Below are positions 3,705 to 4,529 of a stretch of DNA of 64,000 bases, piece by piece (positions within the stretch are counted from its first letter, which is position 1; each line of letters starts with the position of its first letter). The DNA lies in the NCBI RefSeq assembly GCF_003334385.1, contig NZ_QOWN01000019.1, one strand, 5' to 3'. Both the position numbers and the translations under genes were made by a program. Below the pieces are notes generated by a model. It had not been told where the DNA came from. It ran no database searches and saw only the letters and a program-made list of their open reading frames with translations. This DNA is from Escherichia coli (GTDB lineage Bacteria; Pseudomonadota; Gammaproteobacteria; Enterobacterales; Enterobacteriaceae).

Positions 3705-4046
3705 ATGAAAACCTCAAAGACTGTGGCAAAACTATTATTTGTTGTCGGGGCGCTGGTTTATCTGGTTGGGCTATGGATCTCATGCCCATTGTTAAGTGGA
3801 AAAGGCTATTTTCTTGGCGTGTTAATGACAGCAACTTTTGGCAACTATGCATATCTTCGCGCAGAAAAACTCGGGCAACTGGATGATTTTTTTACCCATA
3901 TCTGCCAGTTAGTTGCGTTAATCACTATCGGTCTCTTGTTTATCGGTGTTTTAAACGCACCTATCAATACTTATGAAATGGTGATCTATCCCATCGCCTT
4001 TTTTGTCTGCTTGTTTGGTCAAATGCGTTTGTTTCGCTCGGCATGA
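3705..4046 (+). CDS. yiaB: YiaA/YiaB-family inner membrane protein (113 aa)
   Basis: ATG at 3705 preceded by GGAG (3695-3698); hydrophobic protein sharing the GLW...KGY repeat motif with the next ORF; the yiaB versus yiaA assignment is by length and recall. Confidence 0.8.
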   Translation: MKTSKTVAKLLFVVGALVYLVGLWISCPLLSGKGYFLGVLMTATFGNYAYLRAEKLGQLDDFFTHICQLVALITIGLLFIGVLNAPINTYEMVIYPIAFFVCLFGQMRLFRSA

Positions 4047-4091
4047 GCAACATAAAGCTCTTACATATTCAGGAATGAAAGGAATACTGTG

Positions 4092-4529
4092 ATGGACAAC
4101 AAAATATCAACCTATTCACCGGCCTTTAGTATTGTGTCATGGATAGCTCTCGTTGGTGGTATCGTTACCTATCTGTTAGGGCTATGGAATGCAGAGATGC
4201 AGTTAAATGAAAAAGGATATTATTTTGCCGTACTGGTATTAGGACTGTTTTCTGCGGCGTCTTATCAAAAGACCGTTCGGGACAAGTATGAAGGCATACC
4301 GACCACTTCCATTTATTATATGACCTGCCTGACTGTCTTTATTATCTCTGTTGCATTACTGATGGTAGGTCTGTGGAATGCGACATTATTACTCAGCGAA
4401 AAAGGTTTTTATGGACTGGCTTTCTTCTTAAGCTTGTTTGGTGCAGTAGCGGTGCAGAAAAATATTCGTGATGCCGGAATAAACCCACCAAAAGAAACAC
4501 AGGTTACCCAGGAAGAATACAGCGAATAA
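4092..4529 (+). CDS. yiaA: YiaA/YiaB-family inner membrane protein (145 aa), internally duplicated
   Basis: Track ORF 4089-4529; ATG at 4092; two copies of a ~60-aa membrane repeat ([15 protein letters not shown] / [15 protein letters not shown]). Confidence 0.8.

Follow-up and report, generated by a model that had tools for sequence, protein, structure and literature searches.

The tandem yiaB and yiaA genes of Escherichia coli: probable paralogues built from an anciently duplicated two-helix membrane hairpin

A pair of adjacent forward-strand genes, yiaB and yiaA, was analysed in this study within a 64,000-nucleotide stretch of an Escherichia coli genome (contig NZ_QOWN01000019.1; hereafter the window). 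The pair is preceded by xylB (2082-3536, + strand) and followed by the convergent gene wecH (4571-5566, - strand). The features of the locus are as follows.

3695-3698: Shine-Dalgarno sequence of yiaB (GGAG), six bases upstream of the ATG.
3705..4046, + strand: yiaB coding sequence, 113 aa, with ATG at 3705 and a stop codon ending at 4046; four predicted transmembrane (TM) helices.
3720..3857, + strand: YiaB module 1 (residues 6-51), a two-helix hairpin with the motif GLWISCPLLSGKGYF; Pfam PF05360 E 3.6e-9.
3888..4022, + strand: YiaB module 2 (residues 62-106), a predicted degenerate hairpin (GVLNAPINTYEMVIY...AFFVCLFG); Pfam PF05360 E 0.31 on residues 64-105.
4080-4083: Shine-Dalgarno sequence of yiaA (AGGA), eight bases upstream of the ATG.
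4092..4529, + strand: yiaA coding sequence, 145 aa, with ATG at 4092 and a stop codon ending at 4529; four TM helices and a hydrophilic C-terminal tail.
4125..4283, + strand: YiaA module 1 (residues 12-64), with the turn GLWNA-x3-LNEKGYY and the end QKTVRD; Pfam PF05360 E 1.1e-20.
4314..4472, + strand: YiaA module 2 (residues 75-127), with the turn GLWNA-x3-LSEKGFY and the end QKNIRD; Pfam PF05360 E 1.7e-18.
4535..4570, no strand assigned: hairpin rich in G+C in the gap separating yiaA from the convergent wecH; folding energy of the RNA -21.2 kcal/mol (z = -5.0), with UUUU after it.

The initial annotation of this DNA, made from the letters alone, had identified the two genes as tandem paralogues, and both the identification and its coordinates proved exact. 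YiaA scored 197.8 bits against NCBIfam NF008482 (YiaA; curated cut-off 150) and YiaB 171.6 bits against NF008492 (YiaB; curated cut-off 130), both above the cut-off, and the counterparts in K-12 MG1655, b3563 (yiaB) and b3562 (yiaA), each carry the name "PF05360 family inner membrane protein". Aligned over their whole lengths, the two proteins are collinear across both modules (Smith-Waterman score 130, z = 17). A megablast search with positions 3500-4700 gave a match in every one of 5426 complete E. coli genomes, and the genes there are annotated as yiaB and yiaA. A mechanical list of open reading frames gives longer versions of both genes, with yiaB starting from TTG at 3663 (127 aa; extra stretch 3663-3704) and yiaA from GTG at 4089. 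The ATG starts at 3705 and 4092 were preferred over these extensions because of their proper Shine-Dalgarno spacing and their agreement with RefSeq.

The hairpin at 4535..4570 was not called by a consensus terminator scan, and is probably a bidirectional terminator of yiaA and wecH. Another hairpin, with a perfect G+C-rich stem of 14 bp, lies directly past the stop codon of xylB (window 3539-3570; -21.5 kcal/mol, z = -4.4) and lacks a T-run; it could represent a REP-like element or a terminator or stabiliser of the xylAB transcript. No match was returned by an Rfam search of 3400-4700.

YiaA had been described in the initial annotation as two copies of a membrane module of about 60 residues, arising by duplication of a two-helix unit. 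The motifs quoted there are present at residues 30-64 and 93-127, and Pfam PF05360 matches the protein twice. A formal self-alignment, which the annotation had named as the check on its own claim, was performed with the Smith-Waterman algorithm, BLOSUM62 and 2000 composition-preserving shuffles. The N-terminal half aligned with the C-terminal half at a score of 102 (z = 17), and 0 of 2000 shuffles scored as well, indicating a significant internal repeat. The duplication of a two-helix unit, which is also the accepted description of the family, is thus supported by the Pfam matches, the self-alignment and the hairpins of the AlphaFold2 model; the size needs correction, with a repeat period of 63 residues (189 nt) and a Pfam core of 53 residues. 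YiaA and its homologues share the hairpin signature G-L-W-N-A-x3-L-(N/S)-E-K-G-(Y/F)-Y at a four-residue turn, with Q-K-x-(V/I)-R-D ending the second helix, and the distance from one EKG to the next is 63-64 residues in nearly every homologue. In YiaA as in YiaB, the two hairpins have the same orientation.

The register is also retained at the DNA level. The in-register remnants TGTTAGGGCTATGGAATGC and GAAAAAGGATATTAT are spaced by 189 nt (63 codons) inside yiaA and by 411 nt from yiaB to yiaA. Remnants D1 and D2 keep the 189-nt register of yiaA module 2, and remnant D3 is located at 3996 (yiaB module 2) and at 4419.

Four hydrophobic segments are present in the hydropathy profile of each protein. 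The AlphaFold2 model of YiaA, built from an alignment of 47 sequences, has a mean pLDDT of 91.5 and a pTM of 0.82, and is a four-helix bundle with helices at residues 10-33, 38-66, 73-96 and 101-129, which are joined by two four-residue turns and a six-residue linker. YiaB is modelled with the same architecture (pLDDT 85.5; helices at 5-26, 30-55, 61-84 and 89-112). In 47 diverse sequences, the positions conserved in at least 90% are G30, L31, Q59, K60, R63, D64, L94, E103, G105, F116, Q122, K123, R126 and D127, and both the conservation table and the AlphaFold2 model place the conserved charged or polar residues at the helix ends, with none mid-helix. Lysine and arginine residues cluster in the linker between TM2 and TM3, and the C-terminal tails of homologues are long and charged. 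From this charge distribution, we tentatively suggest an N-in/C-in topology. The K/R-rich linker (QKxxRDK-xEGIP) and the hydrophilic tail might then be cytoplasmic, with the QK..RD ends possibly on the cytoplasmic side and the N..EKG turns possibly on the periplasmic side. Fold searches with the models against solved structures returned generic helical bundles only and no specific match, and a sequence search of solved structures gave a single chance match to an aquaporin (E 2.9). The best 50 listed matches of a fold search in AFDB50 were all annotated family members.

YiaB had been credited with one clear copy of the module. The quoted copy, GLWISCPLLSGKGYFLGVLM, is present at residues 22-41 and module 1 is indeed clear, although it lacks the N in GLWN and the E in EKG as well as the QK..RD motif; the reading of YiaB as a single-module protein proved improbable. 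YiaA module 1 aligns with the N-half of YiaB at z = 9.9 and YiaA module 2 with its C-half at z = 11.8, whereas YiaA module 1 against the YiaB C-half gives z = 0.5. Module-specific profiles were built from 38 two-module homologues, leaving out both E. coli YiaA and the eight Enterobacterales sequences that are named in the alignment. On these profiles, the N-half of E. coli YiaB scored 25.5 bits for module 1 versus 10.1 for module 2, and the C-half 25.6 bits for module 2 versus 10.8 for module 1. YiaB of E. coli and seven orthologues from other taxa (those named include E. albertii, E. fergusonii, Citrobacter and Klebsiella) were scored, and the N-half was best matched by module 1 and the C-half by module 2 in 8 of 8. 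YiaB and YiaA are collinear throughout an alignment of 28 sequences. The polar signature of the family (N..EKG, QK..RD) has mostly been lost in YiaB, above all in module 2: in E. coli YiaB, GLWIS and GVLNA stand in place of GLWNA, GKG and EMV in place of EKG, and neither QK..RD motif is left. The decay has gone less far in Citrobacter (WNAPLSPLEKGLY) and in Superficieibacter (LSEKGYY and GLWNEPIALSQK).

Two other explanations of these similarities deserve consideration. As every segment is a hydrophobic helix, and as weak chance matches to FliP, MIP and EamA appeared in the profile searches, the resemblance might be thought purely compositional, with hydrophobic TM helices resembling each other by chance. 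This explanation is refuted, because the shuffles preserve composition and never reached the observed scores, and because the positions in common are occupied by polar residues (N, E, K, Q, K, R, D), which recur with a constant 63-residue period across dozens of distant homologues. The other explanation holds that YiaB contains one module only, followed by an unrelated two-helix C-terminal half. Self-alignment of YiaB detects no internal repeat (N-half versus C-half, z = -0.1) and the Pfam match on residues 64-105 falls short of significance, as this explanation would predict, but the C-half aligns with YiaA module 2 and scores on a module-2 profile made without Enterobacterales sequences. In addition, Citrobacter and Superficieibacter YiaB retain WNAPLSPLEKGLY and GLWNEPIALSQKIIY in their C-halves, and the NCBIfam YiaA profile aligns collinearly with residues 7-107 of YiaB. 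A one-module YiaB is therefore very improbable. Judged from these sequence comparisons, the C-half of YiaB appears to be a degenerate copy of YiaA module 2, homologous to it although below Pfam significance.

The wider family was surveyed by an exhaustive phmmer search of 1.84 billion cluster representatives (E <= 1e-3), which found 524 related representatives (50% clustering). Apart from fragments, most of them have two modules and a length of about 120-200 aa. When one genome per species was scanned with a query alignment of 7 sequences, 586 matches were obtained, from which 79 loci were kept, including members of Enterobacterales, Beta- and Gammaproteobacteria, Bacteroidota, Bacillaceae, Chloroflexota, Acidobacteriota, Verrucomicrobiota, Campylobacterota and Desulfobacterota. 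In the kept loci outside Enterobacterales, identity to E. coli YiaA is 53-68% (about 55-65% for Bacteroidota and Bacillaceae). Intact two-module proteins that keep both motifs occur in Proteobacteria, Bacteroidota, Bacillaceae, Chloroflexota, Acidobacteriota and others. YiaB-type proteins form 141 clusters, of which the named ones belong to Escherichia/Shigella, Citrobacter and Klebsiella, and Superficieibacter loci contain a copy as well; beyond Escherichia, Citrobacter, Klebsiella and Superficieibacter, yiaB was not found. Among the loci compared, the yiaB-yiaA tandem pair is not present in Phytobacter, Cedecea or any more distant locus.

Identities to the E. coli proteins over the same species pairs are 84% for YiaA versus 57% for YiaB in Citrobacter, 72 versus 42% in Klebsiella and 70 versus 33% in Superficieibacter, which indicates that YiaB diverges more than twice as fast. 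Since the two halves of YiaB are orthologous to separate YiaA modules, the duplication of the hairpin came first and is ancient, and the whole two-module gene was duplicated later. Taken together, yiaB and yiaA are very probably tandem paralogues of the YiaAB family, each encoding four helices from two 63-residue hairpins, in which the hairpin duplication is ancient and yiaB arose later through tandem duplication of the whole gene, followed by faster divergence.

Short variants of YiaA, of 79-90 aa, were also observed. One is located at 3001-3255 of locus L085, a Klebsiella-like genome with the gene order xylA-xylB-yiaB-yiaA-wecH-ysaB-glyQS, and others are the proteins P0360, P0368 and P0381 (L084 132-371). 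In these collapsed forms, the first helix of module 1 continues in frame into the second helix of module 2 at GLWNA..EKG, with exactly one repeat unit deleted. All of their closest relatives have two modules, so that the collapsed forms are derived and not ancestral; an ancestral single-hairpin lineage was considered and rejected, the short forms being sporadic in-frame deletions. Additional family copies were found elsewhere. Hymenobacter sp. YC55 contains two well-conserved copies about 1 kb apart (L047 5935-6390 and 7109-7546), and in two loci of Betaproteobacteria (L015 and L081) a further, divergent copy lies on the opposite strand at a distance of about 3 kb. These second copies are independent and lie outside Enterobacteriaceae.

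No experimental function was found in the literature on family members, in which mentions of yiaA or yiaB are incidental. The two genes are described as separate transcription units that are activated by the D114E variant of Lrp (PMC10127797). A SoxS ChIP site is located near Salmonella yiaB (PMC10268841), and yiaB is listed in a chemical-genetic screen with silver (PMC6071238). In Variovorax, a YiaAB protein is 26-fold up in biofilm and, together with its three neighbours, spans a range of 26-42-fold (PMC7494200). The gene yiaA has been described as sigma-32-controlled (PMC10519446); this target was first reported in one ChIP-chip study by Wade et al. 2006 and was not re-detected on reinvestigation (PMC2996942), and no sigma-32 consensus was found upstream of yiaB or yiaA. 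We regard the link between yiaA and sigma-32 as weak. A mention of yiaA as an 'IAA-producing gene' (PMC6624879) seems to be an artefact of text matching and was set aside.

A comparison of gene neighbourhoods at the 79 loci revealed no partner that is shared across phyla. Its two largest clusters of neighbours were rejected as spurious open reading frames that overlap the yiaA homologue itself in high-GC genomes. The only recurrent partner is a Crp/Fnr-like open reading frame of 187 aa (weak Fnr match, E 0.005), which in 11 Bacteroidota loci (L018, L025, L028, L029, L032, L041, L053, L055, L063, L069 and L070) precedes the yiaA homologue by about 80 bp and lies on its strand. Eleven other Bacteroidota loci, mostly of Flavobacteriaceae, have a TPR-like open reading frame of about 400-520 aa divergently upstream (BT_2802-family-like, E 1e-11). 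No match to the PADLOC defence models was found. Several complete E. coli genomes carry an IS1 insertion in yiaA that separates the two modules and leaves two fragments annotated as 'YiaA/YiaB family' (for example, NZ_CP016404.1, L083 893-2107, equivalent to about window 4092-4529), which indicates that yiaA is dispensable in those natural strains.

With only four helices, a membrane core devoid of conserved polar residues, and invariant E-K and R-D pairs at the membrane boundaries, YiaA might be read as a scaffold or a partner-binding protein. We tentatively propose that it could be a non-enzymatic subunit of this kind that oligomerises in the membrane, is expressed conditionally (under stress or in biofilm) and does not transport solutes. 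YiaB might be a diverged copy that possibly interacts with YiaA or has been neofunctionalised, a proposal that we hold just as tentatively. More speculatively, the YiaA family as a whole may perform an undescribed and widely shared membrane function, for example as a stress-induced membrane-organising oligomer, with the enterobacterial YiaB as a modulatory partner; we consider this rather improbable as it stands.

These proposals compete with two other views of the proteins. It has to be asked whether yiaB is simply a functionless, decaying duplicate that is turning into a pseudogene. Its divergence at more than twice the rate of yiaA, its loss of the polar signature of the family, its narrow distribution and the many truncated variants in databases all fit such a fate, and engineered strains delete yiaB without comment (PMC11957790). 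However, many of the truncated records stem from short contigs, the open reading frame is intact in four genera, and YiaB has an invariant motif of its own, CPL(L/F)SGKGYFLGVL, in Escherichia, Citrobacter and Klebsiella (missing in Superficieibacter). The confident four-helix model and the gene's own Shine-Dalgarno sequence and transcription unit also argue against decay, which we therefore consider unlikely. The other view, that YiaA-family proteins are small channels or transporters acting as oligomers with pore-lining hairpins, is in keeping with their listing in TCDB as 9.B.44 and with known channels and F-ATPase c-rings that are built from duplicated 2-TMS hairpins (PMC3061005), as well as with the very high identity across phyla. 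Evidence against it includes the position of all conserved charged or polar residues at helix ends, the lack of a conserved transporter partner or substrate-related neighbour in the 79 loci, and the lack of a specific structural match to any channel; in a screen for alanine export, yiaB was merely a first-round pick and was dropped afterwards (PMC10299036). A channel or transporter function thus appears improbable, and a scaffold or partner-binding role is the reading that we would tentatively follow.

YiaA, conserved at about 60% identity across phyla, is a reasonable candidate for targeted phenotyping, and its family is among the more strongly conserved bacterial membrane proteins of unassigned function. 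The discovery value of the repeat itself is small, because an existing Pfam domain is defined by it and the literature on transporter evolution treats it as a textbook-style case.

A hairpin duplicated in the same orientation is the evolutionary unit of F-type ATPase c-subunits and similar membrane proteins. YiaA resembles these and other hairpin-duplication proteins in having the two-helix hairpin as its unit and a same-orientation duplication (PMC3061005), but it has no sequence or specific fold similarity to the c-subunits and lacks a mid-membrane carboxylate, and the likeness is one of analogy only. Much closer is the YiaAB family of TCDB (9.B.44), in which a 2-TMS element has been duplicated to give 4 TMSs (PMC3061005, citing Saier 2003); it comprises the same proteins with the same evolutionary reading as the initial annotation, and the internal 2-TMS duplication is found here in both the self-alignment (z = 17) and the 63-residue register of the homologues. 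The class assigned by TCDB, that of putative transporters, is neither supported nor refuted by the present data. YiaA and YiaB are likewise name-giving members of Pfam PF05360, the 'yiaA/B two helix domain' of 53 positions, so that the repeat was already catalogued. The Pfam description of two transmembrane helices with a short conserved linker is that of the two-helix unit in the initial annotation, it agrees with the hydropathy and the AlphaFold2 hairpins of YiaA and YiaB, and the domain matches YiaA twice and YiaB once clearly and once weakly. Our results do not differ from Pfam, and the sole addition to it is the second half of YiaB as a probable degenerate copy of module 2. Beside this degenerate module, the modest additions made here to what these resources hold are the order in which the duplications took place, the confinement of yiaB to Enterobacteriaceae and the faster divergence of YiaB, and they amount to an evolutionary account in which an ancient hairpin duplication was probably followed by a recent tandem gene duplication in Enterobacteriaceae and then by asymmetric decay of YiaB.
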